Positions 2,915-32,645 of a stretch of DNA of 33,013 nt are shown one piece after another. Each line of letters opens with the position of its first letter. Positions within the stretch are counted from its first letter, which is position 1. Both the position numbers and the translations under genes were made by a program. The notes beneath the pieces were generated by a model. The model made no database searches. It was not told where the DNA came from and was given only the letters and a program-made list of their open reading frames with translations. The stretch comes from a virus, in IMG/VR virus record IMGVR_UViG_3300045988_025432, positions 1-33,013 of that record. One strand, given 5' to 3'.

Positions 2915-3450
2915 AAACAAAATTGATAGGTAACTTCATCCGAAAATCAAGAAACGAAGATGGAAACCTAGAAATAACATTTGAATTGACTGATAAAACA
3001 TATGAATATTACGCTCAGGCCCTCAAAAAAGGGGCATATAGTGTAGTTATAGATTCGGTTAAAGATTTACGTACACTTAAACAAAATAACCTTATGTGGG
3101 GCTTAATTGGAGATATATGTAGCAATGAAAACGCAAGCCATAGAGACACGTGGGATATGTACTGCGAGTTTTTGAGAATGGCAAAGCAAAAATATACATA
3201 TGTTTTAGTCGTTAAAGAAGGCTACGACGATTTATGTGTTGCGCATGGAGTTAGAGCAGTACAGGCGTTAGGTACAGAAACAAGAGAAAACGGAAAAGAA
3301 TTTATAAAATGTAGAGTATTTATAGGTAGTTCACGGATGAGCACAAAAGAAATGGGAAATTTAATTGATTGCATATTATATTATGCGGAACAATTAGGAA
3401 TCAACACTAAATACTACTTAGATGAAGGAATAAAAGGGGAAGAAAAATAA
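2911..3450 (+). CDS. ninB: NinB/Orf-family recombination mediator
   Basis: RTLKQNNLMWGLIGDICSN and IGSSRMSTKEMGNLIDCILYYAEQLGI align with lambda Orf (RSLDQNRKLWACLGDVSRQ and GQSTSRMRVGEFAELLELIQAFGTERGV, from memory). TTG start in a TTGA overlap with the upstream stop. Confidence 0.7.
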   Translation: MKTKLIGNFIRKSRNEDGNLEITFELTDKTYEYYAQALKKGAYSVVIDSVKDLRTLKQNNLMWGLIGDICSNENASHRDTWDMYCEFLRMAKQKYTYVLVVKEGYDDLCVAHGVRAVQALGTETRENGKEFIKCRVFIGSSRMSTKEMGNLIDCILYYAEQLGINTKYYLDEGIKGEEK

Positions 3451-3827
3451 AGTTTGTAATCAAAGGAAAGCTAGATGGATTGAATGAATATATTAATGCT
3501 TGCAGAACGAATCGTTACAAAGGAGCAGAAATGAAGAAAAAGAATGAGCGATTAGTTATGGCCTATATATTACAGGCAGTAAACTTTGGTGAAATTTACG
3601 AAGTTAAGAACTACCCAATTAAATTAAATATTAATTGGTATGAGCCGAATTCAAGGCGTGATATTGATAACGTAACATTCGCAACTAAATTCATTCAAGA
3701 TTCATTAGTTAGAACAGGAATACTTGAGGATGATTCAAGAAAATACATTAATCAAGTGAATCATTCAGTATTTACTGATAAACAAAATCCAAGGATAGAG
3801 GTAGAAATTCTGGGCGGAGGTGATTAG
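3447..3827 (+). CDS. rusA: RusA-like Holliday junction resolvase, predicted ATA start
   Basis: KFVIKGKLDGLNEYINA..RRDIDNVTFATKFIQDSLVRTGILEDDSRKYI..NPRIEVEI fits the Firmicute-phage RusA pattern. The frame is open only from 3426 and has no ATG/GTG/TTG before TTG 3480, which would remove the conserved first strand. ATA 3447 overlaps the ninB stop (ATAA) and lies 6 nt after AAAGGGGA. Confidence 0.7.
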   Translation: MKFVIKGKLDGLNEYINACRTNRYKGAEMKKKNERLVMAYILQAVNFGEIYEVKNYPIKLNINWYEPNSRRDIDNVTFATKFIQDSLVRTGILEDDSRKYINQVNHSVFTDKQNPRIEVEILGGGD

Positions 3828-3828
3828 A

Positions 3829-4500
3829 ATAGCAGAACTAAAGAAATCGTATTACGCAATAATACCTGCAGAAGTTCGATATGATGAAGAATTGCCACCA
3901 AACGCAAAACTATTGTATGGAGAAATTACATCATTGTGTAATGAAAAAGGATATTGTTGGGCAACAAATCAATATTTCGCAGATTTATATAAAGTTTCTA
4001 AAATTACAGTAAGTAGATGGATTAGCATTCTAAACAAAAAAGGATATATTGCCGTAGAAACACTGTATAAAGAAGGAACAAAAGAAATTATCGGAAGGCA
4101 TTTATATATTGTAAATACCCCTATTAACAAAAATGTTAAAGATAATAATAAAGTTATTAATACTAAAATTAATAATAAATTAAAAGTAAGTAAACATAAA
4201 TACGGAGAATATCAACACGTTCTATTAACAGATAAAGAACACACACAACTATTAGATTTATATGGTGATTCATTAGATGAGCATATAAAGATATTAGATG
4301 AGTATATTGAAACGAGTGGAAAGAAATACAAGAACTATTCACTAGTAATTCAGAAGTGGGTACATGATGAATGGACTAAAAGAAATAAAGATAAGCCTAT
4401 CACACTTGATTCAAAGTTTTATGCAGAGCAAAACACAAAAACAGATAAAGAAGTACAGGATGAATTTAATAGGCTTAGAGCACAACTGTTTGGTGCATAA
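3829..4500 (+). CDS. Phage replication protein / replisome organizer (N-terminal winged-helix), predicted ATA start
   Basis: AKLLYGEITSLCNEKGYCWATNQYFADLYKVSKITVSRWISILNKKGYI is the typical HTH replication-organizer N-domain. GGAGG 3816-3820 overlaps the track's GTG 3820 and lies 8 nt before in-frame ATA 3829 (context AATAGCA). Confidence 0.6.
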   Translation: MAELKKSYYAIIPAEVRYDEELPPNAKLLYGEITSLCNEKGYCWATNQYFADLYKVSKITVSRWISILNKKGYIAVETLYKEGTKEIIGRHLYIVNTPINKNVKDNNKVINTKINNKLKVSKHKYGEYQHVLLTDKEHTQLLDLYGDSLDEHIKILDEYIETSGKKYKNYSLVIQKWVHDEWTKRNKDKPITLDSKFYAEQNTKTDKEVQDEFNRLRAQLFGA

Positions 4501-4513
4501 AAGGGGTGAATAA

Positions 4514-4720
4514 ATGATTAATTGGATTTGTGGAGCTATATGTGGAAGTGTTGCAACACTTCTTCTATATAGCATAATGGTAGGAAAAAGGATTCAAGAA
4601 GAACAAGACAAAGCTTGTAAATGTATTTTTAAATATGAAGAATACAGAAGAAGAATCAGAACTTTAGAATATGAAAAAAAGAAATTAGAGTATGACTTGA
4701 AATCTGCTCAACAGAGGTAA
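4514..4720 (+). CDS. Small membrane-anchored coiled-coil protein (hypothetical)
   Basis: ATG after an AAGGGGTGA SD; N-terminal TM segment WICGAICGSVATLLLYSIMV followed by a charged helix. Confidence 0.5.
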   Translation: MINWICGAICGSVATLLLYSIMVGKRIQEEQDKACKCIFKYEEYRRRIRTLEYEKKKLEYDLKSAQQR

Positions 4721-4725
4721 TCAAT

Positions 4726-5343: not shown

Positions 5344-5345
5344 AA

Positions 5346-7560: not shown

Positions 7561-7755
7561 ATAGAAATGAATTATGAAGAAAGGATTAAAGAGTTAATTT
7601 CTAAAAACAATAGACTAGGAAGGAAGAATATTGAATTGGAGCAGACTTTAAAAGAAAGAAACGCAACAATTCATACTCAAGCTAAAGAAATCAAGAAATT
7701 AAGAAGTGAAGTTGGCGAATTAAAGGATAGATTGTATAAGGTATACAGTTCATGA
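7561..7755 (+). CDS. Small coiled-coil protein, predicted ATA start
   Basis: GGAGG 7548-7552 overlaps the track's GTG 7552. In-frame ATA 7561 (context TCAATAGAA) is 8 nt downstream; the next ATG (7567) is 14 nt away. Confidence 0.5.
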   Translation: MEMNYEERIKELISKNNRLGRKNIELEQTLKERNATIHTQAKEIKKLRSEVGELKDRLYKVYSS

Positions 7756-8078
7756 GCACATATGAAGATATTAAGAGACACTTCTTGTGTGAATGCCAAT
7801 CGTACACATATTATGAGCAAAAGATAGCAGAGCTACAAAGGGATGAAGCAATTTATCCTTTAAAAGCCGAGCTATTCTTAGCTCATGCAGATTATGCAAG
7901 AAGAATGAACTATGTAAAAGACAAATTAAGCCAACTTGATGATACAACTCGAGCCATGATTGAGTATAGATATATAAAGGGATTCAGTGCAGAAAAAACA
8001 TCTAATATTGTAGGTTATGCACGAGAAGAGATTCCAAGAAAAATAAATAAGAACTTAAAGAAAGTGCTCACATTGTGA
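7752..8078 (+). CDS. ArpU/RinA-like late transcriptional regulator (sigma-70 region-4-type HTH)
   Basis: ATGA overlap start. C-terminal RAMIEYRYIKGFSAEKTSNIVGYAREEIPRKINKNLKKV is a sigma region-4-like HTH. It sits at the early/late boundary ahead of the packaging genes. Confidence 0.5.
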   Translation: MSTYEDIKRHFLCECQSYTYYEQKIAELQRDEAIYPLKAELFLAHADYARRMNYVKDKLSQLDDTTRAMIEYRYIKGFSAEKTSNIVGYAREEIPRKINKNLKKVLTL

Positions 8079-8087
8079 GCATTTTTT
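8065..8087 (+). terminator. Rho-independent terminator
   Basis: TGCTCAC (8065-8071) pairs with GTGAGCA (8075-8081), 3-nt loop, then TTTTTT 8082-8087. The stop codon of the upstream gene lies inside the stem. Confidence 0.65.
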
Positions 8088-8089
8088 CA

Positions 8090-8098
8090 TGTAATAAT
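8090..8098 (+). promoter_or_regulatory. Extended -10 promoter (TGtAATAAT) for the tRNA gene
   Basis: TG-n-AATAAT ends 7 nt before tRNA position 1 (8105), so the transcript could start at or next to the mature 5' end. Confidence 0.4.
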
Positions 8099-8104: not shown

Positions 8105-8180
8105 AGCAGGATAGAGCAGTAGTAGCTCACTAGTCTTATTAGCTAGAGGTCGAATGGTGCAAATCCTTCTCCTGCAACCA
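8105..8180 (+). tRNA. Initiator-like tRNA with anticodon UAU (decodes AUA), encoded CCA
   Basis: Hand-folded cloverleaf. Acceptor AGCAGGA/TCCTGCA: A1xA72 mismatch, then 6 Watson-Crick pairs including G2:C71 and C3:G70. T8 A9. D stem GAGC/GCTC (A11:T24), D loop AGTAGTA. Anticodon stem CTAGT/GCTAG, loop CTTATTA (anticodon TAT 8137-8139, T at position 37). Variable loop AGGTC. T arm GAA(T)GG/CCTTC with one bulged T, T loop TGCAAAT. A73 plus CCA. Blocks GAGCAG, GTAGCTC, AGGTCG, CAAATCC and GCAACCA match E. coli and B. subtilis tRNA-fMet as I recall them. Atypical points: no GG in the D loop, G at position 55, pyrimidine at 37, and only one of the three initiator G:C pairs in the anticodon stem. 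Confidence 0.7.
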
Positions 8181-8262
8181 TGTTTACAAAGCCTATGAGC
8201 AAGTCCTTTCCGAATTAGATATTAAATACCAACAATTGCATACAATTAGGCTTTGATATATT

Positions 8263-8287
8263 ACCGAGCGTTTGTCTCGGTTCTTTT
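8263..8287 (+). terminator. Rho-independent terminator downstream of the tRNA
   Basis: ACCGAG (8263-8268) pairs with CTCGGT (8276-8281), 7-nt loop, T-rich tail TTCTTTT. Confidence 0.5.
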
Positions 8288-8305
8288 AATAATAAGGAGG
8301 AGAAT

Positions 8306-9101: not shown

Positions 9102-9299
9102 ATGAAATTGTATCTAGCAGGAGGACAAGCACAACGAAAGACGGCTATCCCTAAAGTAGGAGAAGATATGAAAATGTATTTAGCGTCTGTTTCGAGACTT
9201 GAAACAGATTTAAAAGCAGAGAGTGGAGGATTAATGAAAGCATATCTAGCAGAGAGTGGAGGATTAATCTTCAATGACGCTAACATATTGCAATCATTC
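9102..9299 (+). repeat. Three 66-nt-phased copies of the dpdA 5' end (ATGAAA-NNN-TAT-YTA-GC..), plus a 20-nt exact direct repeat 33 nt apart
   Basis: ATGAAATTGTATCTAGC at 9102, ATGAAAATGTATTTAGC at 9168, ATGAAAGCATATCTAGC at 9234, all in one frame (MKLYLAGG / MKMYLAS / MKAYLAESGG). GCAGAGAGTGGAGGATTAAT occurs at 9216-9235 and 9249-9268. A perfect 8-bp hairpin TCTGTTTC/GAAACAGA lies at 9186-9208. Confidence 0.8.
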
Positions 9300-9947
9300 T
9301 ATTATGTGGATGACTTCACTCGAAATATAATCATCCCAAATTGTAAGGATTTCTTATTAGATAGTGGAGCATTTACATTTATACAGAATGCGAAACACGT
9401 TGATTGGGATGAATATGTAGAAAAATATGCAAAATTTGTTAGAGAAAACAAGATTCAGAAATATTTTGAATTAGATATTGATTCAATCGTTGGATTAAAA
9501 GAAGTAGAACGATTAAGAACGAAACTAGAAAGATTAGTTGGTTGGCAATGTATTCCTGTATGGCACAGAAGCAGAGGAATGGATTATTTTATAAAGCAGT
9601 GTGAAGAATACCCTTATATAGCAATCGGTGGAATCGCAATCAAAGAAATAAAGCAAAATGAATATCCTATCTTTAAAGTGTTGATAAAAGAAGCACATAA
9701 AAGAAATACAAAGGTACACGGCTTAGGTTTCACACAATTAAAGAAACTGAAAATGTATAACTTTGATTCTGTAGATAGTTCATCATGGGTTAGTGGCAAT
9801 AGATTCGGTGCTATATATTGGTTTAACGGAGAAACTTTAGAAAAGATAAATAAACCAAAAGGAAAACGAGTGAAGAGTTCACAAACTGCTATAAATAACT
9901 TTATACAGTGGAAGAAATTCGCTAATTATGTAGAAAGGACATATTAA
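9168..9947 (+). CDS. dpdA: DpdA-type (TGT-like) DNA 7-deazaguanine transglycosylase
   Basis: NILQSFYY..FLLDSGAFTFIQN (TGT-type DSG catalytic Asp motif), IAIGGIA, and FDSVDSSSW fit phage/bacterial DpdA. The start is ambiguous: ATG 9168 has the best SD (TAGGAG, 6 nt), ATG 9234 gives the minimal conserved protein, and ATG 9102 has no SD. Confidence 0.65.
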   Translation: MKMYLASVSRLETDLKAESGGLMKAYLAESGGLIFNDANILQSFYYVDDFTRNIIIPNCKDFLLDSGAFTFIQNAKHVDWDEYVEKYAKFVRENKIQKYFELDIDSIVGLKEVERLRTKLERLVGWQCIPVWHRSRGMDYFIKQCEEYPYIAIGGIAIKEIKQNEYPIFKVLIKEAHKRNTKVHGLGFTQLKKLKMYNFDSVDSSSWVSGNRFGAIYWFNGETLEKINKPKGKRVKSSQTAINNFIQWKKFANYVERTY

Positions 9948-10250: not shown

Positions 10251-10722
10251 TGAGGAAGCATTAATAAAGAATCAAACAATTAAGACAATTTCAATGAATG
10301 CAATCGTATGTGCAATGTATGTTGCATTATGTGTAGCACTAAATCCAATTAGCTTTGGAGCATTACAATTTAGAGTAGCAACTCTATTGTTACCATTAGG
10401 ATTTCAAGATAAGAGATTTGCAAATGGAATTATTCTAGGTGTAATCTTAGCAAACTTAACAAGTTCACTAGGATTAATTGATGTATTGGTTGGATTTACA
10501 ATTCAATTTACAATGTATTATTTATTCCCATATTTTATTAAGAATAAATGGATTCATGGAATTGCTTATGCAGTATTAAGTGGAACGCTAGTAGCATTAG
10601 AATTATTATCAGTATTACACATCCCATTCTTATATTCATTTATTACAGTAGGATTAAGTGGACTAATCTTATATGAAGTAGGGAATGTATTATGTACAAG
10701 ATTATTGAAATACATTGATTAA
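10243..10722 (+). CDS. queT: QueT-family queuosine-precursor transporter (ECF S-component-like membrane protein)
   Basis: About 150-160 aa, all hydrophobic helices. NAIVCAMYVALCVALNPISFGALQFRVATLLLPL matches the QueT signature (..aAlYv.lt..p.sfg.iQfRvsE.l). The start is ambiguous: TTG 10243, in-frame ATA 10264 (7 nt after GAGGA), or ATG 10294. Confidence 0.6.
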   Translation: MINEEALIKNQTIKTISMNAIVCAMYVALCVALNPISFGALQFRVATLLLPLGFQDKRFANGIILGVILANLTSSLGLIDVLVGFTIQFTMYYLFPYFIKNKWIHGIAYAVLSGTLVALELLSVLHIPFLYSFITVGLSGLILYEVGNVLCTRLLKYID

Positions 10723-10737: not shown

Positions 10738-11106
10738 ATGGCAAGCAAAAAATTTATTAATCAAAAACAGTTTGAGCAACTATGCCAAATTCAATGCACA
10801 AAGGATGAAATTTGCGCCGTGTTAGATGTATCAGACAAAACATTAGACAGATGGTGTAAAGAAACATATAAAACGTCATTCTCCGATATTTTCAGACAAA
10901 AAAGGCAAGGAGGGTGTGCAAGCTTAAGAGCGAAGCAGTGGAAGTTGGCTTCAAAGAGTCCTGCTATGGCTATTTTCTTAGGTAAACAATTCCTAGGTCA
11001 AACGGATAAGGTAGAAACACATTTTGACGCTTCAGAAGTAAATGCAATTAATAAAGCTATGATTACAGATGTAGCAAAAGAAAGAAGAATTGAAGATTTT
11101 GAATAA
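10738..11106 (+). CDS. terS: Terminase small subunit
   Basis: N-terminal HTH (QFEQLCQIQCTKDEICAVLDVSDKTLDRWCK) and LRAKQWKLASK.SPAMAIFLGKQFLGQTDK, a typical TerS pattern, immediately upstream of TerL. Confidence 0.75.
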   Translation: MASKKFINQKQFEQLCQIQCTKDEICAVLDVSDKTLDRWCKETYKTSFSDIFRQKRQGGCASLRAKQWKLASKSPAMAIFLGKQFLGQTDKVETHFDASEVNAINKAMITDVAKERRIEDFE

Positions 11107-12424
11107 GCCTGCGCCTTTCAATCAAAAGCAATTAACTTATCTTAAAAAAACATTTGATTCATGGCTTAATGTATTAGAAGGTGGCAAGCGTGGAGGAAAG
11201 AACGTACTCAACACATACGCTTTCTGTATTGCATTAGAAACACATCCGGATAAATTCCATTTGATAGCAGGAACAGATACATCATCTGCACGTGTTAATA
11301 TTGGAGATTGTAACGGATACGGATTGCAGAACTATTTTGCTAACAGATTCAAAGTAGGGAAGTATGAAGGTAAAGACTGCTACTACATCAATACAAAGGT
11401 AGGAGAAAAGGTTGTATTCTTTGCCGGTGGTGCTAAGAAAGGCTCAGAGAATGCAATACATGGTTATTCATACGGCATGGCATACATTACAGAAGCAAAC
11501 CTTTGTTGCATAGAGTTCTTGCAAGAAGTGATGGATAGAACGATAGCGTCAAGCAATCGAAAGATATTTCATGATTTAAACCCAAAAGGAAAGAATCATT
11601 GGTATTACACAGATTTCTTGAAATATCATGAGGAGCAACAGAATAAAGATTCTACATATGGTTATAACTATGGGCATACCACCTTAGTTGACAATTATTC
11701 TTTAAGTGATGAGCAGATAAGAACGGTCTTGAAATCATACGATAAGAATAGCGTTTATTACAAAAGAGATATAAAAGGACAAAGGGAAGAAGCCGAAGGA
11801 CTTGTATTCCCTTATTTTGCAAATAACTGCAAACCTTACCTATTCAAATATCAGAGTCTAAAAGAAAAGATGAAGGAAAAAGGAAAAAGGTTCAGTCATT
11901 TAATTATTGGAGTTGACTTTGGAGACAATGGTTCAAAGTATTCATGGCACTTAACAGGGTTTACAAATGATTGGGATTATATGTGGGCACTTGATGAAGG
12001 AGACATGGCAAAGTCAAATGCAATAGACGCAACAAAGTTCTGCAAAGCATTTGTAAGGTTCTATAAGCGTTGTATTGAATGTTACGGATATGTAGAATGG
12101 ATATTTCCGGACAGTGCTTCTAATACATTAATAAACACGCTTAGAGCTTATTTCTATGCCGAAGGATTAGACGGAAGTATAATTGCACCGGTTAAGAAGA
12201 ATGAGCTAACAGACCGTCCTATAACGGTTGATAGCTTACTTGTTACAGGTAGATTGAAAATAGAAGAACACTGTAAGAACTTAATAAACGCATTGAGCGA
12301 ATTGGTATGGGATGAAAAAAAAGACATTCCAAAAGATGAGAACGTAAACAATATCAATGATGATTGGGATTCGTTCTGCTATACATTTATAACCCATAGT
12401 GGATATATAGATTTAAGGAGGTAA
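11090..12424 (+). CDS. terL: Terminase large subunit (PBSX/XtmB-like)
   Basis: Walker A-like EGGKRGGKN, ATPase and nuclease halves of typical length (444 aa), located between TerS and portal. Confidence 0.85.
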   Translation: MKILNKPAPFNQKQLTYLKKTFDSWLNVLEGGKRGGKNVLNTYAFCIALETHPDKFHLIAGTDTSSARVNIGDCNGYGLQNYFANRFKVGKYEGKDCYYINTKVGEKVVFFAGGAKKGSENAIHGYSYGMAYITEANLCCIEFLQEVMDRTIASSNRKIFHDLNPKGKNHWYYTDFLKYHEEQQNKDSTYGYNYGHTTLVDNYSLSDEQIRTVLKSYDKNSVYYKRDIKGQREEAEGLVFPYFANNCKPYLFKYQSLKEKMKEKGKRFSHLIIGVDFGDNGSKYSWHLTGFTNDWDYMWALDEGDMAKSNAIDATKFCKAFVRFYKRCIECYGYVEWIFPDSASNTLINTLRAYFYAEGLDGSIIAPVKKNELTDRPITVDSLLVTGRLKIEEHCKNLINALSELVWDEKKDIPKDENVNNINDDWDSFCYTFITHSGYIDLRR

Positions 12425-12427
12425 GAA

Positions 12428-13831
12428 ATAGAAACATCTAACACACGTAGACCGTGGTTTCAGAATTACCTAAACGATAGAGGGTATTATGTAGACACAA
12501 ACGCAATTGAAATTATTGAATTGTGCAACAAGTGGTACACGAATACCGAAACAGAATTTCATACGGCATACACCTTGAATAACGAGGAATACACGCTAGA
12601 TAAAACAGACTTTGCAAAGCGTTTATGTGAGGATGACGCAAACCTAATTGAAATCCTAGATATAAACGCTACAGAGGATAGCGTTACAAATGACATTATT
12701 TCAGACATTCTAACAAAGAATAGATTTGATGTAATGTACAGAAAACAGGTTGAGCAAATGTCTGCAAATGGTACTGTAGGAGCTTATGTAACGGTATCAA
12801 ATGCCGAGATTTATGAAGATGGTACATTCAGTGGAGGAGAAATCAGAATCAATTATTGTGATTCAATGAATATCCTTCCATTAACTGTTATAAATGATGA
12901 AATTGTGGAAGTTGCTTTCGTTGGAGTAAATTATGAGAAACTAAAGAAAGTATATGTGATGGTCATGTTCTTAAAAGGACAAGACGAAAGATATATTGCA
13001 GAAACACATTACTTCAAAGACACAGGCGAGGAAATAAAAGAACGTGCTCAGATTGTTCAACTAGATGTAGTTAAACCCTTTGCAATTATGAGAAATGCAA
13101 AGGTAAACAACTTACAAATGCAAGGGTACGGCTTACCTAAAATTTGGAGTGCAATCGCTCCTTTAAAGACAATTGACCTAACAATGACAATGTGGAATCG
13201 AGATTTATTGAAGTCAGATAAAATCGTTCTTGTGAATGAAGCATTAATGCAGAAAGACGAGAATGGAAAGATTAAGATGAATCCACAAATGAAAAAGATT
13301 TTTGTTCAGTTAGGTAGAGACAAGTTACCGGAAGAAAAAGCTTTATGGCAAGAATACAATCCAACAGTTAGAACACAAGAAGTTGTTCAATCACTAGAAA
13401 CTGCTTTAAGCATCTTATCAATGATGTTTGGATTCGGCACAAAGAAATACACGTTTGAAAGTGGAAGAATTGTGACGGCTACAGAATACATTGGTGAGAA
13501 TCAAGACGCAATGAAGGAAGTAAACTCACAACGTAAAGAATCTACGGCTTATATTCAAGATATCATTCAAGCAATAGCATACTTCTATGAATTAACACAA
13601 GGCAGAAAGCTTAATATCAATTCATTAGATATTGCAATTGATTATGATGATACATATATAGAGGATAAGCAAAGCACTGCACAAGCGTTAAGAAATGACG
13701 CACTTACATTTGATATTCCAAGATTGAAAATTATGTACTTTATGAAACAATACGGATTTACAGAAGAAGAAGCAACGGAATTATTAAACGAAGAAATTCA
13801 AGATGATGGAGAGGGGGATGACGAAGAATAG
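12428..13831 (+). CDS. Portal protein (SPP1 gp6-like), predicted ATA start
   Basis: Size and position fit a portal. The frame opens at 12425, right after the terL stop. The 31 codons before the track's TTG 12521 read as coding (ETSNTRRPWFQNYLNDRGYYVDTNAIEIIE) and contain no ATG/GTG/TTG. AAGGAGG 12415-12421 lies 6 nt before ATA 12428. Confidence 0.8.
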   Translation: METSNTRRPWFQNYLNDRGYYVDTNAIEIIELCNKWYTNTETEFHTAYTLNNEEYTLDKTDFAKRLCEDDANLIEILDINATEDSVTNDIISDILTKNRFDVMYRKQVEQMSANGTVGAYVTVSNAEIYEDGTFSGGEIRINYCDSMNILPLTVINDEIVEVAFVGVNYEKLKKVYVMVMFLKGQDERYIAETHYFKDTGEEIKERAQIVQLDVVKPFAIMRNAKVNNLQMQGYGLPKIWSAIAPLKTIDLTMTMWNRDLLKSDKIVLVNEALMQKDENGKIKMNPQMKKIFVQLGRDKLPEEKALWQEYNPTVRTQEVVQSLETALSILSMMFGFGTKKYTFESGRIVTATEYIGENQDAMKEVNSQRKESTAYIQDIIQAIAYFYELTQGRKLNINSLDIAIDYDDTYIEDKQSTAQALRNDALTFDIPRLKIMYFMKQYGFTEEEATELLNEEIQDDGEGDDEE

Positions 13832-14634: not shown

Positions 14635-14645
14635 AGGATGTATAT

Positions 14646-16652: not shown

Positions 16653-16654
16653 TA

Positions 16655-16801: not shown

Positions 16802-16803
16802 AC

Positions 16804-16941: not shown

Positions 16942-16988
16942 ATAAGAATATAGTTGATTAATTGAATATAGAAAAAAGGAGGAATAAC

Positions 16989-21642: not shown

Positions 21643-22058
21643 TAGGATTTTTTGAAGATTCAATCACACTTGTAAATCACTACTATGATACATTGACGAG
21701 AGAAGATAGGTTTCAAGCTTCTATCCTTGATAAATGTATGTGGAGACAATCAACTGTTAGAACTGCAAACGGTAATATTCTGAGCATAGCCACATCCACA
21801 AATATTACCATTCTATATCGTGAAGGATATGTTGAACCTTACGCATATGCAAAGCTTTCAAATGATGAGAAGCAAAAACATTTCACATTGAATACAGATA
21901 AAACAGATTTCGTATTCTTTGGAGAAGTGAAAGAAGATTTATCCACAATTAAAGCAATAAACGAAGCTAAAAAGAAATACAAATGGACAACGATTCAAAG
22001 CGTAACAGATTGTACGAATGTAGATATGTTGAAGCATTGGGAGGTTGTCGGTCAATAG
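21639..22058 (+). CDS. Head closure/stopper-type protein (assigned by position)
   Basis: ATG 21639 in an ATGA overlap with the upstream stop. Synteny-based call. Confidence 0.45.
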   Translation: MIGFFEDSITLVNHYYDTLTREDRFQASILDKCMWRQSTVRTANGNILSIATSTNITILYREGYVEPYAYAKLSNDEKQKHFTLNTDKTDFVFFGEVKEDLSTIKAINEAKKKYKWTTIQSVTDCTNVDMLKHWEVVGQ

Positions 22059-22417
22059 GTATCAAAGTTAAGCTTGATGTTAAATCACTTCAAGAATTTA
22101 AACAATCAAGAGGACTTGAAGAACGTGGACGAGTTCAACAAATGATTGATTCTGAAGTCATTAGGCTTATGACCCCCTATACGCCTAGAGACACCGGAGC
22201 ATTAATTAACTCTGCTACACGATTAACACAAATTGGTAGTGGATTAGTAAAGCAAGGTGGACCAAGTGCACCTTATGCAAGACGTTGGTATTACAACAAA
22301 GAGAATGCTCATTTTGTAGGTGGTAAAACAGACCATTGGTTTGAAAAAGCTATGCGAAATGGTGGAGAAGAAGCAATCTTGAAAAAAGCACAACAAATGA
22401 TAGGAGACGGAGAATGA
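22055..22417 (+). CDS. HK97 gp10-like head-tail joining protein, predicted ATA start
   Basis: MTPYTPRDTGALINS and APYARRWYYN fit the HK97 gp10 family pattern. ATA 22055 overlaps the upstream stop (ATAG) 10 nt after GGGAGG. The alternative ATG 21983 would need a 76-nt overlap and has no SD. Confidence 0.55.
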   Translation: MGIKVKLDVKSLQEFKQSRGLEERGRVQQMIDSEVIRLMTPYTPRDTGALINSATRLTQIGSGLVKQGGPSAPYARRWYYNKENAHFVGGKTDHWFEKAMRNGGEEAILKKAQQMIGDGE

Positions 22418-22833
22418 CAGTATCAAAAGCATTAATCCAATGGTTATATGGCTATGGAAATATACAGATAGATGAACGTATTGAAACGGATGTTTTAGCG
22501 CAACAGGCTATCTCTTATGCGTTGTATAAAGAACCTAACGCAATTGTAGATACATACATTGACGGCTCTCAAATGCGTACTGAATATTACACGTTTCTAG
22601 CTCGTAGGAATACACAAATTGAAACCGAAAGGCAAGACAACAATTCTTTCTTAGAAGAATTAGGAGAATGGATTGACGAAAAGAATTTAAACGGAGAATT
22701 ACCACAACTAGACGGAAACAGATATTGTGAGGATGTTTCCGTTTCAAGTGGCTTATATCTATACACAAATGAGGATAGTCAAGCAGTATATGCCTTGACT
22801 ATTCAAATCAAATACAGAAAGGAGCTTAATTAA
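22414..22833 (+). CDS. Tail completion/terminator-type protein (assigned by position)
   Basis: ATGA overlap start; directly precedes the major tail gene. Confidence 0.45.
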   Translation: MTVSKALIQWLYGYGNIQIDERIETDVLAQQAISYALYKEPNAIVDTYIDGSQMRTEYYTFLARRNTQIETERQDNNSFLEELGEWIDEKNLNGELPQLDGNRYCEDVSVSSGLYLYTNEDSQAVYALTIQIKYRKELN

Positions 22834-23339
22834 TAGCAACTCAAGGGACCGAAGTAAGTACAGGACAGACAGTCAAGAAGTATATGATTGGATTGTTCTT
22901 AGAAATGGGAACAGGTTATAAGCGAATTAAGAAGTCTACAACTTTAGATATTTCATTTAACAGTGAAACTGAAACTTATGATTTTATCGCAGATAAGAAC
23001 CCAACAGAATCATTGAAAAGTTATTCACCTCAGATTTCGCAAGATTTAACAATGATTAAAGGTGAAGATGATTTTGAATATATTTATGAACAAATGATGA
23101 AATCCGTTCCTAACAATGAAGAAGTAAATACAAAATCTTTAATTGTATTCATGTTTGACGGAGATAAAACAAAAGGCTATAAAGCGTGGGAAGTTGACTC
23201 TAAATTAATCTTTGACACATTGAGTGGCGTTGATTCAAAAATCAACTTTAACATTAACTTTGCAAGCGATATTCGTGTTGGTATTGCAAAGGTAGCAGAT
23301 GGAACAGTGACATTCACAGAAGGTACATCAGAAGTATAA
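22833..23339 (+). CDS. Major tail (tube) protein, predicted ATA start
   Basis: Position upstream of the chaperone pair and tape measure gene. The frame opens at 22830. ATA 22833 (context TTAATTAATAGCA, the same as the capsid start) lies 8 nt after AAGGAG. The first ATG (22884) has no SD. Confidence 0.65.
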   Translation: MATQGTEVSTGQTVKKYMIGLFLEMGTGYKRIKKSTTLDISFNSETETYDFIADKNPTESLKSYSPQISQDLTMIKGEDDFEYIYEQMMKSVPNNEEVNTKSLIVFMFDGDKTKGYKAWEVDSKLIFDTLSGVDSKINFNINFASDIRVGIAKVADGTVTFTEGTSEV

Positions 23340-24300: not shown

Positions 24301-26880
24301 ATATCAGATGGAACATTAAAGTTTGAAACAAAGATAGATACAAGTGGTCTAGAGAATGGTATTAAATCTGTAAAGGTTGTATCAAGTGAAGCCACAAATG
24401 CTATTAAAGAAACTTCAAAAGCGATTGATAAGCTAGGTTCTGATGGTTCAAAAGCACCACCAAAGATTAAAGATAAACTTAAAGATTTAAACGAAGAGCA
24501 AAAGAATACACAGACAGAAACGCAAGAAACAGGTTCTAAATTTGATGTATTTAAGCAAGTAGGTAACAGTGCATTAGAATCAATTCAAGGTGGATTTGAT
24601 GGACTATTAGGAAAGATTCAGAATATTAGTCCGGAAGCTAGTGCAATCACTGAAACCTTAACAGGATTAGGCGTAGGAGGTGTTGTTGGTGTTACTGCCG
24701 TAGCCGGAGCTATTGGTGGAATGGCACTAGCAATTAAAACAGGTGTTAATCAAGCTATTGAATTAGATGACGCTATGGCTAAATTCCAAGCTCAGACAGG
24801 TGCTTCAAGTAATGAAATGAGCAAATTTAAAAACATTGCTCGTGATGTTTGGTCTAATAATTTCGGTGAAGATGTTTCAGATGTTGCCGATATGATGGGC
24901 AGAGTCAAGCAACAAATGCAAGGCATAAGTGATGTTGATTTAAAGGATGTTACTGAGGATTTATTGACATTAAGAGACACATTCGGAATGGACGAGAACG
25001 AAACATTAAGAGGTGCTCAACAATTAATGAAGCAGTTCGGAATTAGTTCTAAAGAAGCTTTTGACCTTATGGCTACAGGTGCTCAGAATGGTTTAAACAA
25101 ATCAGATGAGTTAGGCGACAACATTTCAGAATACTCCGGTAAATTCAAGCAAGCAGGATATTCGGCAGAAGAATACTTCCAATTAATGCAGAATGGATTA
25201 GATGGTGGAGCTTATAACCTTGATAAAGTAAATGACGCAATCAACGAAGTTACCACAAGGTTAGTCGATGGAACTATTGAAGGAGCTTTAGATAGTTTTG
25301 ATACCAAGACGCAAGATGTCTTTAAAGCTTGGCAAGAAGGAAGAGCAACTCAGAAAGATGTTGTGAATGCGATTGTTGAGGATATTTCTAAGACAACAAA
25401 TGAGCAAGAAAAGTTGAATAAATCGGCAACGGCTTTCGGTACAATGGGAGAAGATTTCAACGCCGGATTCATTCAGTCCTTAACGACAGTAGGGAATAAA
25501 TATAAAGATGTAGAAGGGGCAATGGATAAAGTCAAAGAAATTGCAAATGGTGGCTTAAAGAACGCTTTAAGTGGCTTAGGGCGTGCATTTCTTGATTCAT
25601 TTACTCCAATAGGCGAACTTATTACCCCTATTCTTGCAGGTATCATTGGATTGATTACAGTAGCTATACAAGGTATTCAACAAGGATTTGCTAAAGTTGG
25701 TGATGTAATTTCAAGTGTATTAAGTAAGATTGATACAAGTGGAATTACAGAATTAACAAGTCAAGTTTCCGAAGTGTTAGCACCTTCCTTTGATAAAGTA
25801 AAAGACGCAATCGACAAAATGAAAGTTGCACTTGAACCTATTGCAAAAGATATATTAAGCAAGATTATTGATGTAATTCAAAACATTGTGAATCAAGCTC
25901 AAAAGATTTTAACAGTGGTAGGTCCACCGATACTTTCTGTTTTAAAGAAAATCATTTCAACGGTTTCGGAATTTATGCCTTTAATCACATCTATATTGAC
26001 TATTGTCGGAAGTGTTGTAAGTGGAGTTATTTCATTTATAAATATGGTAGTCACATATACCGGAACGGCAATCGCAACGGCAATGGGATTTATCATGCCT
26101 ATTGTTCAAATCATAGCTACAATCGTAGCGAATATTTGGTCTGTAATATTAACGGTTGCTCAGAATATTTGGAGCAAAGTTAGCGAAGTAGTTACTGCCA
26201 TTATTGGATTCGTAAGCAATTTGTTTAAAACAGTTTCGGACATCATAAACAATATTTGGAGCAAGATTCAAGACGCAATGAATAGAGTCGGCGATAAGGT
26301 AAAAGGTGTTATTGATAATATCAATAAATATTTCAATAATGTTAAGAGTACTGTTTCTGATGTATTCAATGGCATTTGGTCTAAGGTCCAAGGTGTGATG
26401 GACAATGTAGGAAATAAAATTTCAAATGTTCTACAAGGAATACAGAATTCATGGAGCGGTTTAAAAGGATTTGTAAGTGGTGTATTTGGTGGAATTGAAG
26501 GAGCAGTTAGTTCATTAGTTGGAAGTGTAAAAGGAATGGTAAATGGTGTTATCGGTGGTATTAACGGTGCAATCGGTATCATTAATAAAATCCCGGGAGT
26601 TCACATTGGAAGGATTCCAAGACTAGAGCGTGGCGGTGTATTGAAGCGTGGTCAAATCGGTTTATTAGAAGGTAATGGAGCAGAAGCAGTCGTACCATTA
26701 GAAAAAAATAAAGCGTGGATTCGTGCCGTAGCTAAAGATATGGTCCAAATCATGCCTAGTGTAACAACAAATAACAACGGACAGACTATCAACTTCTACA
26801 ATAAAGTTCAAAGTCCGGATGAAATCGCTAGAATGTTACGTATGCAAGCAAGATATGGATATGGAGGTGTAGTTCAATAG
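24301..26880 (+). CDS. Tape measure protein, predicted ATA start
   Basis: Length, a Gly/Ala/Val-rich TM-like core, and repeated NIWSK motifs. The frame opens exactly at ATA 24301 (preceded by TGA). The next 140 codons ((M)SDGTLKFETKIDTSGLENGIK.., a typical TMP N-terminus) contain no in-frame ATG/GTG/TTG. The AAGGAGGTGG SD is 8-11 nt upstream. Confidence 0.85.
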   Translation: MSDGTLKFETKIDTSGLENGIKSVKVVSSEATNAIKETSKAIDKLGSDGSKAPPKIKDKLKDLNEEQKNTQTETQETGSKFDVFKQVGNSALESIQGGFDGLLGKIQNISPEASAITETLTGLGVGGVVGVTAVAGAIGGMALAIKTGVNQAIELDDAMAKFQAQTGASSNEMSKFKNIARDVWSNNFGEDVSDVADMMGRVKQQMQGISDVDLKDVTEDLLTLRDTFGMDENETLRGAQQLMKQFGISSKEAFDLMATGAQNGLNKSDELGDNISEYSGKFKQAGYSAEEYFQLMQNGLDGGAYNLDKVNDAINEVTTRLVDGTIEGALDSFDTKTQDVFKAWQEGRATQKDVVNAIVEDISKTTNEQEKLNKSATAFGTMGEDFNAGFIQSLTTVGNKYKDVEGAMDKVKEIANGGLKNALSGLGRAFLDSFTPIGELITPILAGIIGLITVAIQGIQQGFAKVGDVISSVLSKIDTSGITELTSQVSEVLAPSFDKVKDAIDKMKVALEPIAKDILSKIIDVIQNIVNQAQKILTVVGPPILSVLKKIISTVSEFMPLITSILTIVGSVVSGVISFINMVVTYTGTAIATAMGFIMPIVQIIATIVANIWSVILTVAQNIWSKVSEVVTAIIGFVSNLFKTVSDIINNIWSKIQDAMNRVGDKVKGVIDNINKYFNNVKSTVSDVFNGIWSKVQGVMDNVGNKISNVLQGIQNSWSGLKGFVSGVFGGIEGAVSSLVGSVKGMVNGVIGGINGAIGIINKIPGVHIGRIPRLERGGVLKRGQIGLLEGNGAEAVVPLEKNKAWIRAVAKDMVQIMPSVTTNNNGQTINFYNKVQSPDEIARMLRMQARYGYGGVVQ

Positions 26881-27746
26881 ATATCAATAAAGTAAGAGTT
26901 ATTGTCCGTAGGGATGATGGCAAAGAATTTGAAATTGATAACAAAAGATGGAGAATACCGTCTAGTGATGGCTTAGATGGATTTGATTATGTAGCACCTT
27001 CATATACTACCCAAGACAATGCATTCGGAAATGGTGCTAGATTAATTGGTTCACGTATTCCAACGAAAGAAAGAAGCGTGAAAGCTACCTTTAAAGGCTC
27101 GCTAGAAGAAAAAAGAGAAGAAAGGGAGAAGCTACGGCGCTTCTTCCAATATTCTCATATATTTGATGTGATAGTTGAGTACATGGGAGAAAAGAAATAT
27201 TGTAGAGGTCGTTTATATGCGTATAGCTTGCCTACAGTTAACATCTACAAAGATTTAGAGCTTAACTTTACAATTCTATGCACACAACCTTTATTGCTTT
27301 CATTTGATGATTTTGCAAGGAATATCGCAGAAATTGGTGAAGGTTTAGCGTTCAACTTTGAAATACCGGAGACAGGTGTAAACTTTGGAACATTTACATT
27401 CGCTAGAGAAATCTATATTGATAATCAAGGTGATACAGAAACATACTGTAGAGCCGTTATTGAAGCGTTTGGAGAAGTAACGAATCCAAAACTATTTAAC
27501 AAGGATAAATATATTCGTGTATTAGATACACTACACAATGGTGATGTATTAGAAATTGATTTAGTTTCTGAGCCTATTTCGATTAAAAAGAATGGTGTGA
27601 ATTGTATCGGCAAAGTTGACAGAACCTCATCATTCAATGATATGACGATTCAGTTAGGTGAGAATATCATAGGATATACGGCAGACAATGGAGATACGAA
27701 TCTAGCTTGCACGGTTTATTACAATGAAAGGTATTTAGGTTTATAG
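26877..27746 (+). CDS. Distal tail protein (Dit-like), predicted ATA start
   Basis: Follows the TMP gene. 67 coding-looking codons ((M)DINKVRVIVRRDDGKEFEIDNKRWRIPSSDGLDGFD..) precede the track's GTG 27078 with no canonical start. ATA 26877 overlaps the TMP stop (ATAG) 9 nt after GGAGG. Confidence 0.7.
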   Translation: MDINKVRVIVRRDDGKEFEIDNKRWRIPSSDGLDGFDYVAPSYTTQDNAFGNGARLIGSRIPTKERSVKATFKGSLEEKREEREKLRRFFQYSHIFDVIVEYMGEKKYCRGRLYAYSLPTVNIYKDLELNFTILCTQPLLLSFDDFARNIAEIGEGLAFNFEIPETGVNFGTFTFAREIYIDNQGDTETYCRAVIEAFGEVTNPKLFNKDKYIRVLDTLHNGDVLEIDLVSEPISIKKNGVNCIGKVDRTSSFNDMTIQLGENIIGYTADNGDTNLACTVYYNERYLGL

Positions 27747-28773: not shown

Positions 28774-29274
28774 ATAGAAAAGAAAAATGGAGGATTTAAA
28801 CAAATAGCAAGAAGTATGTTTTTTCTAGATAAGATTAATGCAATGTGTGGTGTTGCCGTAGCCGTATTAACATACGTATTAGGTGAACATTGGTATTTAT
28901 TCGCATTCTTCTTATTTATGAATGTAGTGGATTATATTACAGGGTGCATGAAATCGGCGATTAATCACAAAATCAATAGCAATAAAGGATGGATTGGAGT
29001 CCTTAAAAAGCTAGGCTATTGGATTATGATTGTAGTTGCGTTCACATTCAGTGCATTCTTGGTTGAGATTGGAAAAATGCTAGGAATTGATTTCCATGTA
29101 TCTACATTGTTAGGTTGGTTTGTGTTAGCTTCGCTATGTATTAATGAATCTCGTAGTGTTATGGAGAATTTATTACAATGTGGTTACAATGTACCAAAAG
29201 CATTAACTAAAGGTTTGGAAGTAGCGGATAAAATCGTTAACGAAGACAATGACGAATCAAGTACCTTGGAATAA
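28774..29274 (+). CDS. Holin (phage_holin_4-type), predicted ATA start
   Basis: Several TM helices plus GWIGVLKKLGYW and the INESRSVMENL motif typical of this holin family. AGGAG 28761-28765 overlaps the track's GTG 28765 and lies 8 nt before in-frame ATA 28774 (context TTAATAGAA). Confidence 0.7.
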   Translation: MEKKNGGFKQIARSMFFLDKINAMCGVAVAVLTYVLGEHWYLFAFFLFMNVVDYITGCMKSAINHKINSNKGWIGVLKKLGYWIMIVVAFTFSAFLVEIGKMLGIDFHVSTLLGWFVLASLCINESRSVMENLLQCGYNVPKALTKGLEVADKIVNEDNDESSTLE

Positions 29275-30885: not shown

Positions 30886-30968
30886 CTCGAAAGAGATTAG
30901 GCAATAGCCTTTGGATTATAGGGTAGTCGAAAGGCTACCCATTTATTTTATATAGGAGGAAAAGAAAA

Positions 30969-31388
30969 ATGATTAATAGTATAGCAACGGCAATTCAGAC
31001 AGTAGCAAATGGACAAAATGTATTATTTCCAACGGATAGAGTAAGGACGAAATCTTGTCAATGTGCTTGTAAAGGTTGGCTCGCTCATGATGTAGGAAGT
31101 GGATTATTTACGTTAACAAAACAAGGAATCTATGAGGTAGAATATACGGCAGATATTACAAGCGCAACGGTAGGAGTCGCTTCTTTAGAATTAGAACAGA
31201 ATGGAGAAGCAGTAGGAGGAACAGAATCTTTATATAACGTAGCTACTGCAAGTGCATATGGAAATGTTAGTGGAGCTACATTGATTCAAGTACCTTGTGG
31301 AGCTTCTTACACAATCACGCTAGGAAATAACAGTGGCTTAGATTTATCTGTTCAAAATGCAAATATCATCATTAAGAAATTAGCGTAG
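30969..31388 (+). CDS. BclA C-terminal-domain-like (C1q/TNF-like jelly-roll) protein
   Basis: FTLTKQGIYEVEYTADITSATVG..LEQNGEAVGGTES..ANIIIKKLA parallels B. anthracis BclA-CTD FVISETGFYKITVIANTATAS..IQVNGVPVPGTGS..ASIIIEKVA (from memory). No collagen-like region. Confidence 0.55.
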   Translation: MINSIATAIQTVANGQNVLFPTDRVRTKSCQCACKGWLAHDVGSGLFTLTKQGIYEVEYTADITSATVGVASLELEQNGEAVGGTESLYNVATASAYGNVSGATLIQVPCGASYTITLGNNSGLDLSVQNANIIIKKLA

Positions 31389-31395
31389 GTGTATC

Positions 31396-31833
31396 ATGCA
31401 AGAGGTTAGAAAAAGGAATCTAGACCTCTTAACGGAAGCAATGAGAGGACTAGAAAAAGGATACAATGATTTAGATTTTAAAGTCATGAGCCAAGCTTTA
31501 GACAATATCAAAGATATTGATACAATACTAGCTATGAGTGATGGAAGAACGGCTATAAACGCATTAAGAACAAATGATACAGATATTGAAGGAACAGAAA
31601 TTGATGACAATATCGCATTGATGAATAGCCATTTTAGAAAATACATAGAAGCAAAAAAAGAATATCGAAAAGATAATAATGAAATAGATAAGCGAAATTC
31701 TATTCGTGAATTGGAAGCTTTCTTAAGCGCTATGTATGGAATTTTAGAAGAAATGAAAACGTCTAGTGATTTTCAAGAAGAAAGAGAAATGGTAAGAGAT
31801 AAATTAAGAGAAATGTTCTCAGTATATCAGTGA
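31396..31833 (+). CDS. Hypothetical helical protein (accessory cassette gene 5)
   Basis: ATG after TAGGTG; no family recognised. Confidence 0.5.
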   Translation: MQEVRKRNLDLLTEAMRGLEKGYNDLDFKVMSQALDNIKDIDTILAMSDGRTAINALRTNDTDIEGTEIDDNIALMNSHFRKYIEAKKEYRKDNNEIDKRNSIRELEAFLSAMYGILEEMKTSSDFQEEREMVRDKLREMFSVYQ

Positions 31834-31847
31834 CAAAAAACCTCTTT

Positions 31848-31860
31848 TATGTGCTATAAT
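31848..31860 (+). promoter_or_regulatory. Extended -10 promoter TATGTGCTATAAT upstream of the endolysin gene
   Basis: Perfect TGcTATAAT at 31852-31860. The same 13-mer recurs at 32713-32725. Confidence 0.55.
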
Positions 31861-31883
31861 TGGCATATAAAGGAGGATTTTTA

Positions 31884-32645
31884 ATAGATTATCAAAGCTT
31901 TAAAAAAGCCGTATTAGGCAAAGCATTCGATTTAGACCATGCATATGGTGCTCAGTGTTGGGATGGAGGCATGAAATATTTAATCGATTTAGGCTACAAA
32001 GCTATCCATTGTACAACAACTGGCTATGTAAAAGATATTTGGAATAATCGAAAGACAAATGGAATTTTAAACTATTGTAATGAGGTCTCAATTATGCAAC
32101 CTGGTGACATTGCAGTATTCAAGGAAGTAGCAGGATGGACACCGTATTCACACATTGCGATTTTCGATTCAGACATTGATGGTAAGTTCGGTTGGTTCTT
32201 AGGACAGAACCAAGGTGGAAAAGGTGGAGCATTCAATTTAATTAAATTGCCTTATTATGCAACCTTTGATACTGCGTTTAGACCTAAATGTTTCGCAAAT
32301 ACAGGAGCAGTTAAACCAAGTATTCCACAACCTGTAGAAGCAATTGACCAAATCTTGCACGCAGGAAGCTACGTAACATCCGTACAAATGAAGATTGGCA
32401 ATCAAGGATTGAAACAAATCAATGGCGATTTATGCGCATACCTTGCACAATTAGGTGGTTGGTTTCCAATTCGTTTAGTCGACAAAGTTCGCTATTCTGA
32501 TGGATATAATGATAACGTATTGCATACAACAAATGCCGTTGTCTATGTTACAAGAATTCGTGTTGATGAAGTCAACGTACAAAAGAATCTTGCGAAAATC
32601 GGTGGAATTTGGGTAAATTGTGACCCATTAATTGAAGTAGCATAA
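31884..32645 (+). CDS. CHAP-domain endolysin with a C-terminal cell-wall-binding domain, predicted ATA start
   Basis: DLDHAYGAQCWDGG (catalytic Cys) and YSHIAIFDS (His) are CHAP motifs. AGGAGG 31871-31876 lies 7 nt before in-frame ATA 31884 (TTAATAGAT). The track's TTG 31860 lies inside the -10 hexamer and upstream of the SD. Confidence 0.8.
   Translation: MDYQSFKKAVLGKAFDLDHAYGAQCWDGGMKYLIDLGYKAIHCTTTGYVKDIWNNRKTNGILNYCNEVSIMQPGDIAVFKEVAGWTPYSHIAIFDSDIDGKFGWFLGQNQGGKGGAFNLIKLPYYATFDTAFRPKCFANTGAVKPSIPQPVEAIDQILHAGSYVTSVQMKIGNQGLKQINGDLCAYLAQLGGWFPIRLVDKVRYSDGYNDNVLHTTNAVVYVTRIRVDEVNVQKNLAKIGGIWVNCDPLIEVA

Follow-up and report, generated by a model that had tools for sequence, protein, structure and literature searches.

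How does a phage translate its capsid, tail and lysis proteins when the genes for them offer no usable ATG, GTG or TTG? This question is raised by a 33,013-bp stretch of viral DNA, IMG/VR record IMGVR_UViG_3300045988_025432 (the whole stretch is called the window here; 33.7% G+C, every gene on the + strand), which, judged by its gene content and its surroundings in longer contigs, covers the lytic genes of a temperate siphophage that resides as a prophage in Holdemanella (Erysipelotrichaceae). A first-pass annotation had proposed that at least 12 of its genes begin at ATA and that a phage-specific system with an initiator-like tRNA of anticodon UAU reads them. Homology, substitution patterns, the hallmarks of the tRNA, its co-occurrence with ATA starts and the pairing between position -1 of the mRNA and nucleotide 37 of the tRNA all support this proposal. 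From these sequence comparisons we consider it highly probable that the phage encodes a second, tRNAfMet-derived initiator tRNA with anticodon UAU and that in 14 phage genes ATA has taken the place of ATG downstream of ordinary Shine-Dalgarno (SD) sequences.

Direct reading of the window placed an ATA in the proposed frame at all 12 main coordinates and at two weaker candidates (2384 and 10264). The resulting 14 ATA-start genes make up 26% of about 54 genes, rather than the one in five originally estimated, hold 35% of the coding capacity and cover nearly all essential virion and lysis genes (Table 1). A strong SD had been described ahead of all 12 main starts; GGAGG, AGGAG or AGGAGG indeed lies 6–11 nt upstream of ten of them (3829, 7561, 12428, 20271, 22055, 22833, 24301, 26877, 28774 and 31884), while only GGGG precedes those at 3447 and 13828, the latter being GGAGG in relatives. 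In the genes for the RusA-like resolvase, portal, fibre-like protein, major capsid protein (MCP), major tail protein (MTP), tape measure protein (TMP) and distal tail protein (Dit), the ATA precedes the first canonical start by exactly the 11, 31, 24, 33, 17, 140 and 67 codons claimed. The reading frame opens 0–2 codons ahead of the ATA in the portal, fibre-like, MCP, MTP and TMP genes, and 0–1 codons ahead of it in all of these except the fibre-like gene. ATAG or ATAA overlaps with the upstream stop codon recur at the four positions reported (3447, 13828, 22055 and 26877) and also at 2384, and the start at 22833 overlaps the upstream stop by one base. For the coiled-coil gene at 7561, the verdict that no canonical start is suitable had to be softened, since an ATG lies two codons downstream; the case for ATA is made there by the SD spacing and by the conservation of the codon in all 67 relatives.

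As a control for chance, we considered 60 long frames on the + strand, 28 of which have no canonical start behind an SD. An ATA occupies this place in 12 of the 28, followed by TTA with 7 (mostly the codon directly preceding an ATA), and the remaining codons occur at most 4 times; ATT and ATC, though equally AT-rich, are found there no more than twice each. Across the window there are 130 internal ATA codons, 224 internal ATG codons and 37 ATG starts. The major capsid gene (20271–21140) contains no internal ATA at all, compared with a phage average of 13 per 1000 codons. At position +4, G follows 10 of the 14 ATA starts (ATAG) but only 10 of the 37 ATG starts, for which three or four stop overlaps alone are an insufficient explanation. 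A possible 15th ATA-start gene of 41 codons lies at 516–641; its ATA is preceded by A and, 7 nt upstream, by GGAGG. The gene is kept in some relatives, and the region is rearranged in others.

Table 1 Features of the window. A-ATA denotes an ATA start with A at position -1.
Feature	Position	Strand	Observations
phrog_7566 gene (function not assigned)	2384–2674	+	Weak SD; ATAA overlap; A-ATA in 12/12 relatives; weakest case
RusA-like resolvase	3447–3827	+	ATAA overlap with upstream stop; A-ATA in 16/16 relatives
Replisome organiser or HTH_36 protein	3829–4500	+	GTG at 3820 falls in the SD; A-ATA in 13/13 relatives
Small coiled-coil protein	7561–7755	+	AGGAGG, 8-nt spacer; A-ATA in 67/67 relatives; alternative ATG two codons on
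Terminator-like hairpin and T-run	8062–8089	+	Closes the replication-gene block; loop changes in relatives leave the stem intact
Putative extended -10 promoter TGtAATAAT	8090–8098	+	TGcGATAAT in some relatives; ends 6 nt before A1; not listed by the consensus scan
Initiator-derived tRNA, anticodon UAU	8105–8180	+	Rfam RF00005, 48.8 bits (gathering score 29) at 8105–8177, then encoded CCA
Terminator-like hairpin and T-run	8263–8290	+	Downstream of the tRNA
QueT-like membrane protein	10264–10722	+	Same codon ATA in 11 and ATG in 3 relatives; -1 always A
Portal	12428–13831	+	AAGGAGG, 6-nt spacer; frame opens one codon upstream; A-ATA in 68/68 relatives; ATA in sister lineage L122/L096
Fibre-like protein	13828–14634	+	ATAG overlap with portal stop; A-ATA in 64/64 relatives
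Major capsid protein (MCP)	20271–21140	+	ATA in 35/35 close relatives; corresponds to ATG in 38 distant homologues; tblastn matches from residue 1
Minor_capsid_2 (gp10-like)	22055–22417	+	ATAG overlap with upstream stop; A-ATA in 42/42 relatives
Major tail protein (MTP)	22833–23339	+	ATA in 37 relatives, ATG in 1
Tape measure protein (TMP)	24301–26880	+	An in-frame TGA is followed by ATA as first sense codon; first ATG 140 codons further on; A-ATA in 38/38 relatives
Distal tail protein (Dit)	26877–27746	+	ATAG overlap with TMP stop; start of Fontainebleau homologue within 8 residues
Holin	28774–29274	+	ATA in 30 relatives, ATG in 3
Endolysin, N-terminal CHAP-type domain	31884–32645	+	AAGGAGG, 7-nt spacer; Streptococcus phage lysins align from residue 3

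Homologues place the beginning of several of these proteins at the ATA itself. Read from there, the MCP is matched by phage capsids from its first residue, and its ATA aligns with the ATG of the distant homologues, which come from viral contigs, are 32–57% identical and share the N-terminus M-[A/P]-N-x-I-x-L-A; the close relatives and a sister lineage carry ATA throughout. The Streptococcus phage lysins that align with the endolysin have an annotated start one residue longer, and the Dit homologue of Acutalibacter phage Fontainebleau likewise overlaps the stop codon of its TMP gene. The comparison of extended N-termini that the first-pass annotation had called for was thus run, and homologues of MCP, endolysin and Dit do cover the extensions. 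For the non-capsid ATA-start proteins, tblastn against distant loci gave few usable N-terminal alignments, the MTP homologue aligning from residue 29 only.

Substitutions among relatives with more than 80% identity separate the start ATAs from all others. Internal ATA codons (n = 3703 aligned) had changed to ATT in 288 cases, to ATC in 250 and to GTA in 71, but to ATG in only 5, and internal ATA therefore behaves as an isoleucine codon. In contrast, the 488 aligned start ATAs had changed to ATG in 7 cases and never to ATT or ATC, although isoleucine codons exchanging at the internal rate of about 14.5% (538/3703) should have yielded about 70 such changes. ATA/ATG polymorphism was seen at the holin, MTP and QueT-like genes and, conversely, at TerS and fibre genes that begin with ATG in the window. 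Between the ATA and the first canonical start, variable sites are distributed 78:45:222 over the three codon positions (p = 3.5e-34; 29:18:92 in the TMP extension), and this third-position variation indicates that the extensions are translated in that frame. With SD spacing, alignment to the ATG of homologues, exchange with ATG only and coding periodicity that begins at the ATA, these codons are, on comparative grounds, start codons.

These data also bear on the possibility that the canonical codons chosen by gene callers are the true starts and that the ATAs are untranslated or ordinary internal codons. Public gene calls (L160–L167) do use canonical codons and thereby truncate or misplace the ATA-start genes, giving an MCP of 256 aa (289 from the ATA), a TMP of 719 aa (859), a Dit of 187 or 222 aa (289), a portal of 418 or 436 aa and a RusA of 98 aa. 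Moreover, at 7561, 3829, 28774 and 31884 the distance between the ATA and a canonical codon is no more than 8 codons. However, the canonical codons have no SD or lie inside it, and neither the homologue coverage and codon periodicity of the extensions nor the exchange of start ATAs with ATG alone is expected of untranslated or internal sequence, so that we hold this explanation to be very unlikely.

Still less credence is due to a changed genetic code with AUA as methionine, as in animal mitochondria, of which the ATA starts would be one aspect. Mitochondria do initiate at AUA with a single tRNAMet. In the phage, however, internal ATA exchanges with isoleucine and valine codons and hardly ever with ATG, the tRNA described below has the features of an initiator and not of an elongator, and the flanking host genes start at ATG. 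ATG or TTG begins each of the roughly 16 flanking host genes examined, as well as the integrase and repressor genes; in this sample, ATA initiation belongs to the phage lytic genes and not to the host.

The ATAs might also be an artefact of sequencing, assembly or base modification, for instance if DpdA-like 7-deazaguanine modification turned ATG into ATA reads, and the window does encode a DpdA/TGT-like protein as well as a QueT-like transporter. This is extremely improbable, because these ATA codons recur in some 70 independent assemblies, which come from several projects and differ in their flanks, and because the internal ATG codons and ATG starts of the window are intact. Only 4 viral contigs carry a DpdA homologue, yet ATA starts are clade-wide, and miscalls could produce neither a matching anticodon nor a coupled change at position -1. 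Two further ideas were discarded: A-to-I editing of AUA, on the general reasoning that the sites lack the TadA motif UACG, and phage stop-codon recoding, as the frames are intact under table 11 and the sole tRNA has the anticodon UAU and not CUA, UCA or UUA.

The tRNA that matches these starts lies directly behind the replication-gene block (Table 1). ARAGORN reported no tRNA in the window. The anticodon loop of the tRNA, CUUAUUA, gives the anticodon UAU and a U at position 37. Nucleotides 1 and 72 are unpaired, as A1xA72 in the window and about 70 relatives and as C1xA72 in the sister lineage, and the formylation determinants G2:C71, C3:G70 and A73 are invariant in all 11 distinct variants. 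The D stem GAGC/GCUC, with A11:U24, is that of E. coli metZ, where elongators have GCUC/GAGC (A11:U24 was read directly in the window and was imposed by the search pattern in relatives), and the variable loop AGGUC is again that of the initiator. In a comparison with five E. coli tRNAs (initiator Met, elongator Met, Ile1, Ile2 and Ala), the tRNA and its variants were 67–77% identical to the initiator metZ and 46–56% to the four elongators; for ileX and ileV the values were 52–55%. Pairing of the cloverleaf reaches 99.5% over the 11 variants, 13 of the 20 pairs show compensatory change, among them three that switch jointly in the anticodon stem (CUAGU/GCUAG to UCGGU/GCCGA), and G30:C40 is retained in 10 of the 11. 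The T stem has a one-base bulge, which is U, C or G in variants. In place of the CAU of initiators, every copy recovered by three independent pattern scans has UAU. The features of an elongator tRNA-Ile2, namely a Watson-Crick pair 1:72, Y11:R24 and a purine at 37, are replaced by a 1:72 mismatch, A11:U24 and U37. By its sequence and structure, the tRNA is a derivative of a bacterial initiator tRNAfMet.

With terminator-like hairpins on both sides, the tRNA would form its own transcription unit, and from the putative promoter directly upstream it may be transcribed from its own first base (about 8105, A1). Between the CCA end and the downstream terminator lies a conserved spacer of about 85 nt (8181–8262) without an open reading frame, which might share a transcript with the tRNA; the idea that it holds a ribozyme or known RNA was dropped after a search of Rfam gave no match.

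Position -1 of the ATA starts points to the same tRNA. All 14 ATA starts of the window are preceded by A, compared with 15 of the 37 ATG starts (Fisher p = 7e-5) and 33% of internal ATA codons, and in relatives, where 486 ATA starts could be aligned, every one has A at -1. Both positions switch together in the genes for TerS and fibre, where C-ATG in some relatives corresponds to A-ATA in others. Because the invariant A(-1) is complementary to U37 of the tRNA, the start signal looks like a four-base helix, A-AUA:U34-A35-U36-U37. Experiments in E. coli have shown that translation rises when -1 and nucleotide 37 are complementary and that an A37U initiator favours A at -1, compensatory A37 mutants having demonstrated the pairing (PMC10018350).

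In light of these features we weighed whether the ATA starts are read near-cognately by the host initiator tRNA(CAU), the phage tRNA being an elongator tRNA-Ile(UAU) for internal AUA codons. ARAGORN calls related tRNAs tRNA-Ile(tat), the phage has its 130 internal ATA codons to be read, UAU isoleucine tRNAs are known in Mycoplasma mobile and a B. subtilis suppressor strain, and the full set of three anticodon-stem G:C pairs is missing. Nevertheless, the 1x72 mismatch has been kept in two forms (AxA and CxA), A11:U24, G2:C71, C3:G70 and A73 are all in place, identity is far higher to tRNAfMet than to isoleucine tRNAs, and position 37 is U where an elongator should have a purine. Wild-type tRNAfMet reads AUA at only 0.1–1% (PMC11744186), an activity hardly compatible with the hundreds of copies in which a capsid protein is required. 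Moreover, the A at -1 fits the phage U37, whereas the usual initiator A37 favours U, and the capsid gene is free of internal ATA. We therefore regard an elongator role as unlikely, and the phage tRNA as presumably the decoder of the ATA starts.

The distribution of the tRNA agrees with its assignment as an initiator for ATA. Three differing pattern scans of the viral collection returned the same tRNA family, always with UAU. Of the 35 contigs whose capsid gene starts with ATA, 30 carry the tRNA, and four of the remaining five end before they reach it; the tRNA is absent from all 40 contigs in which the capsid gene starts with ATG. In all, the tRNA and ATA starts accompany each other in about 70 independent assemblies. 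In the sister lineage (L096/L122), whose proteins are 50–64% identical in amino acid sequence to those of the window, the tRNA has diverged (C1xA72, canonical T loop) and has the same CUUAUUA loop, and SD-linked ATA starts occur at the portal, capsid and other genes. Among 185,579 representative genomes, the tRNA pattern had 3 matches, all in unrelated high-GC metagenome-assembled genomes. Within the contigs compared, these patterns show that a matching initiator-type tRNA co-occurs and co-evolves with the ATA starts.

About ten further distinct initiator-like UAU tRNAs were encountered in metagenomes of 27–68% G+C (L116/L154, L118/L156, L144, L077/L094, L114/L119/L123, L115, L125 and L133), and ARAGORN gives the label tRNA-Ile(tat) to those among them that were scanned with it. 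While simple C34-to-T variants of the host's initiator genes may account for some, further private-start systems may be represented by others. A low-GC lineage (L152 9388–9543, L137 1478–1633) encodes a perfect initiator-type tRNA with C1xA72, three G:C pairs and UAU, located 8 nt from a tRNA to which ARAGORN assigns a four-base anticodon (tgaa); no ATA starts were seen in the 12 kb of sequence examined.

How initiation at ATA might proceed can be outlined from known steps. The SD would place the 30S subunit, the phage tRNA would enter the P site with U34-A35-U36 pairing to A-U-A, and U37 would add a fourth pair with the invariant A(-1), which may compensate for a codon–anticodon helix made of A:U pairs throughout. 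Initiation factor 3 (IF3) would accept this complex because it checks codon–anticodon complementarity and not codon identity. Indeed, in a reconstituted E. coli system, initiation at AUA with an engineered tRNAini(UAU) is no less efficient than with the AUG/CAU pair, and IF3, EF-G and RRF monitor pairing strength and not sequence (PMC10158994). The 1x72 mismatch together with G2:C71, C3:G70 and A73 should permit formylation and avoid EF-Tu, leaving the tRNA without a role in elongation, and internal ATA would stay an ordinary isoleucine codon read by the host. Without the phage tRNA the 14 genes would be nearly silent; with it, they would be translated from SD-positioned 30S complexes. The tRNA would most likely be charged with isoleucine, since the Firmicute (B. 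subtilis) isoleucyl-tRNA synthetase (IleRS) can accept an unmodified UAU anticodon (PMC3919564), or possibly with methionine, and then be formylated.

As to purpose, the arrangement may render late-protein synthesis of the phage dependent on, or insulated by, a private initiator. Candidate benefits are a lock on the holin, lysin and virion genes while the phage is a lysogen, control over when late proteins are made, a private initiator pool and resistance to initiator-attacking nucleases; phage tRNAs with altered anticodon loops are reported to evade anticodon nucleases (PMC10264068). With less assurance than for the second initiator as such, we favour the fuller picture of a natural orthogonal initiation channel, in which a tRNAfMet with C34 changed to U reads the private start A-AUA through UAUU, probably with formyl-isoleucine, and makes virion and lysis production dependent on the tRNA.

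Several points speak against this interpretation. All of the evidence is comparative and was obtained in silico. The three consecutive G:C pairs of initiators (29:41, 30:40 and 31:39) are incomplete, being A:U / G:C / U.G in the window and G:C / G:C / U.G in another variant. Mycoplasmas are relatives of the Erysipelotrichaceae. In E. coli the middle pair G30:C40 is sufficient by itself, and au/GC/gu is found in natural mycoplasma initiators (PMC5389676). The elbow is atypical, with a D loop AGUAGUA that lacks the GG of G18G19 and a T loop UGCAAAU or UGCAAUU that has G at U55, and it is because of these non-canonical loops that ARAGORN rejects the gene. Together, the deviations in elbow and anticodon stem could impair tRNA function; the elbow might also alter contacts with IF3 or the ribosome, and the sister-lineage tRNA has normal loops. 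U37 is highly unusual and removes the usual t6A37 element. Methionyl-tRNA synthetase (MetRS) depends on C34, and charging with methionine would need an unusually tolerant MetRS. For isoleucine, the E. coli IleRS accepts UAU poorly (PMC3575796). A simple early/late switch does not fit, since four of the ATA-start genes belong to the replication block, upstream of the tRNA. Furthermore, the tRNA was not traced in the fifth of the ATA-capsid contigs outside the 30 (L003), which has a mosaic left arm with ATG starts; a search with DpdA relatives to reach the tRNA region of this contig returned 4 loci only. Finally, the short flanks of other UAU tRNAs (L116/L154, L118/L156, L137/L152, L144, L077 and others) contained no convincing SD-linked ATA starts, and we therefore make no claim that the system is general.

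The context of the window identifies its host. From left to right, it carries recombination and replication genes (Erf, NinB, RusA, replisome organiser and SSB), the tRNA, genes for a ParB-like nuclease, a DpdA/TGT-like enzyme and a QueT-like transporter, and then terminase, portal, fibre-like, head, neck and tail genes, holin and endolysin. Exact-protein look-ups located the sequence within contigs of 54–97 kb. In one of the assemblies (ERZ28660323 scaffold_185), an integrase and a repressor lie upstream of the window part, with host genes on both sides (aroA/aroC/aroB on one, cysK/metA on the other). As identical copies of the flanking host proteins carry the names Holdemanella sp. or H. porci, the element is a Holdemanella prophage. 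It is very common in the human gut, one of its proteins being indexed in 572 blocks of the collection; a megablast search with 22 kb of the window gave no match among INPHARED phages.

Three other parts of the window deserve mention. The DpdA/queuine-tRNA-ribosyltransferase-like gene (9102–9947, phrog_887), together with the QueT-type transporter gene (10264–10722), suggests 7-deazaguanine modification of the phage DNA; this module is mosaic, the DpdA homologue occurring in only the 4 viral contigs while the rest of the phage is widespread. Fibre-like and tail-fibre genes (13828–17858; 268 aa, 668 aa and a 289-aa match to phrog_4492) are located between the portal and head-morphogenesis genes, an unusual position for a siphophage. 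At 11075–11110, the large terminase gene has neither an SD-linked start nor an ATA candidate; gene callers take TTG 11099 within the end of the small terminase gene, and its translation is probably coupled to the upstream gene.

To our knowledge, all known cellular life initiates with an initiator tRNA of anticodon CAU, and a full-text literature search found no report of a natural non-CAU initiator tRNA or of a phage ATA-start system. If our interpretation is true, the window would hold the first natural private start codon and the first non-CAU initiator tRNA in nature; the universality of CAU initiation would be overturned by a second natural initiator for a defined gene set, and start-codon identity, so far reassigned only by engineering, would be reassignable in nature. 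The tRNA and its A-AUA context would offer synthetic biology a ready-made orthogonal initiation pair, and temperate phages would have a new way to gate or insulate lethal late genes or to evade host shut-off. The ATA starts also explain the systematic N-terminal truncation of capsid, portal, tape measure, Dit and lysin in hundreds of public assemblies of this prophage, and phage genomes with tRNA-Ile(tat) calls would be worth a second look.

Of the five E. coli tRNAs compared, tRNAfMet (metZWV/metY) is the closest, sharing with the phage tRNA the 1x72 mismatch, G2:C71, C3:G70, A73, A11:U24, the AGGUC variable loop and G30:C40. It differs in having CAU, A37 and three G:C pairs, whereas the phage tRNA has UAU, U37, one or two of the three G:C pairs and non-canonical loops, is phage-encoded and probably carries an amino acid other than methionine. 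The elongator tRNA-Ile(UAU) of Mycoplasma mobile and of a B. subtilis tilS-deletion suppressor shows that an unmodified UAU reads AUA and that some IleRS accept it; these tRNAs have elongator architecture and act in the A site, in contrast to the initiator architecture found here. Mitochondria share the use of AUA as a start codon. There, a single tRNAMet with a modified C34 reads AUA as methionine both internally and at starts, while in the phage internal AUA stays isoleucine and a separate initiator is present.

The stop-codon recoding of crAss-like and Lak phages resembles the present system in that a phage tRNA alters the decoding of the phage's own genes, structural and lysis genes foremost, and gene callers mis-annotate them. 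Recoding, however, concerns elongation through in-frame stops, whereas the phage described here, whose window lacks in-frame stops, alters initiation at a sense codon. Quadruplet pairing between -1 and nucleotide 37 in E. coli and chloroplasts likewise enhances initiation through complementarity (PMC10018350), but the known pair U(-1):A37 is a modest enhancer, and the phage pair is the reverse, A(-1):U37, and invariant. The nearest precedents for the mechanism are engineered initiators (amber tRNA(CUA), NNN anticodons and orthogonal systems), in which an altered anticodon directs the start to the complementary codon (PMC10158994, PMC11744186). A naturally evolved, virus-encoded, non-CAU initiator serving a sense codon would be, in our assessment, new as a natural system, each mechanistic step having an engineered precedent. 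The engineered initiators are laboratory constructs, whereas that of the phage would be natural, evolutionarily maintained, in service of 14 genes and matched by a co-evolved position -1.

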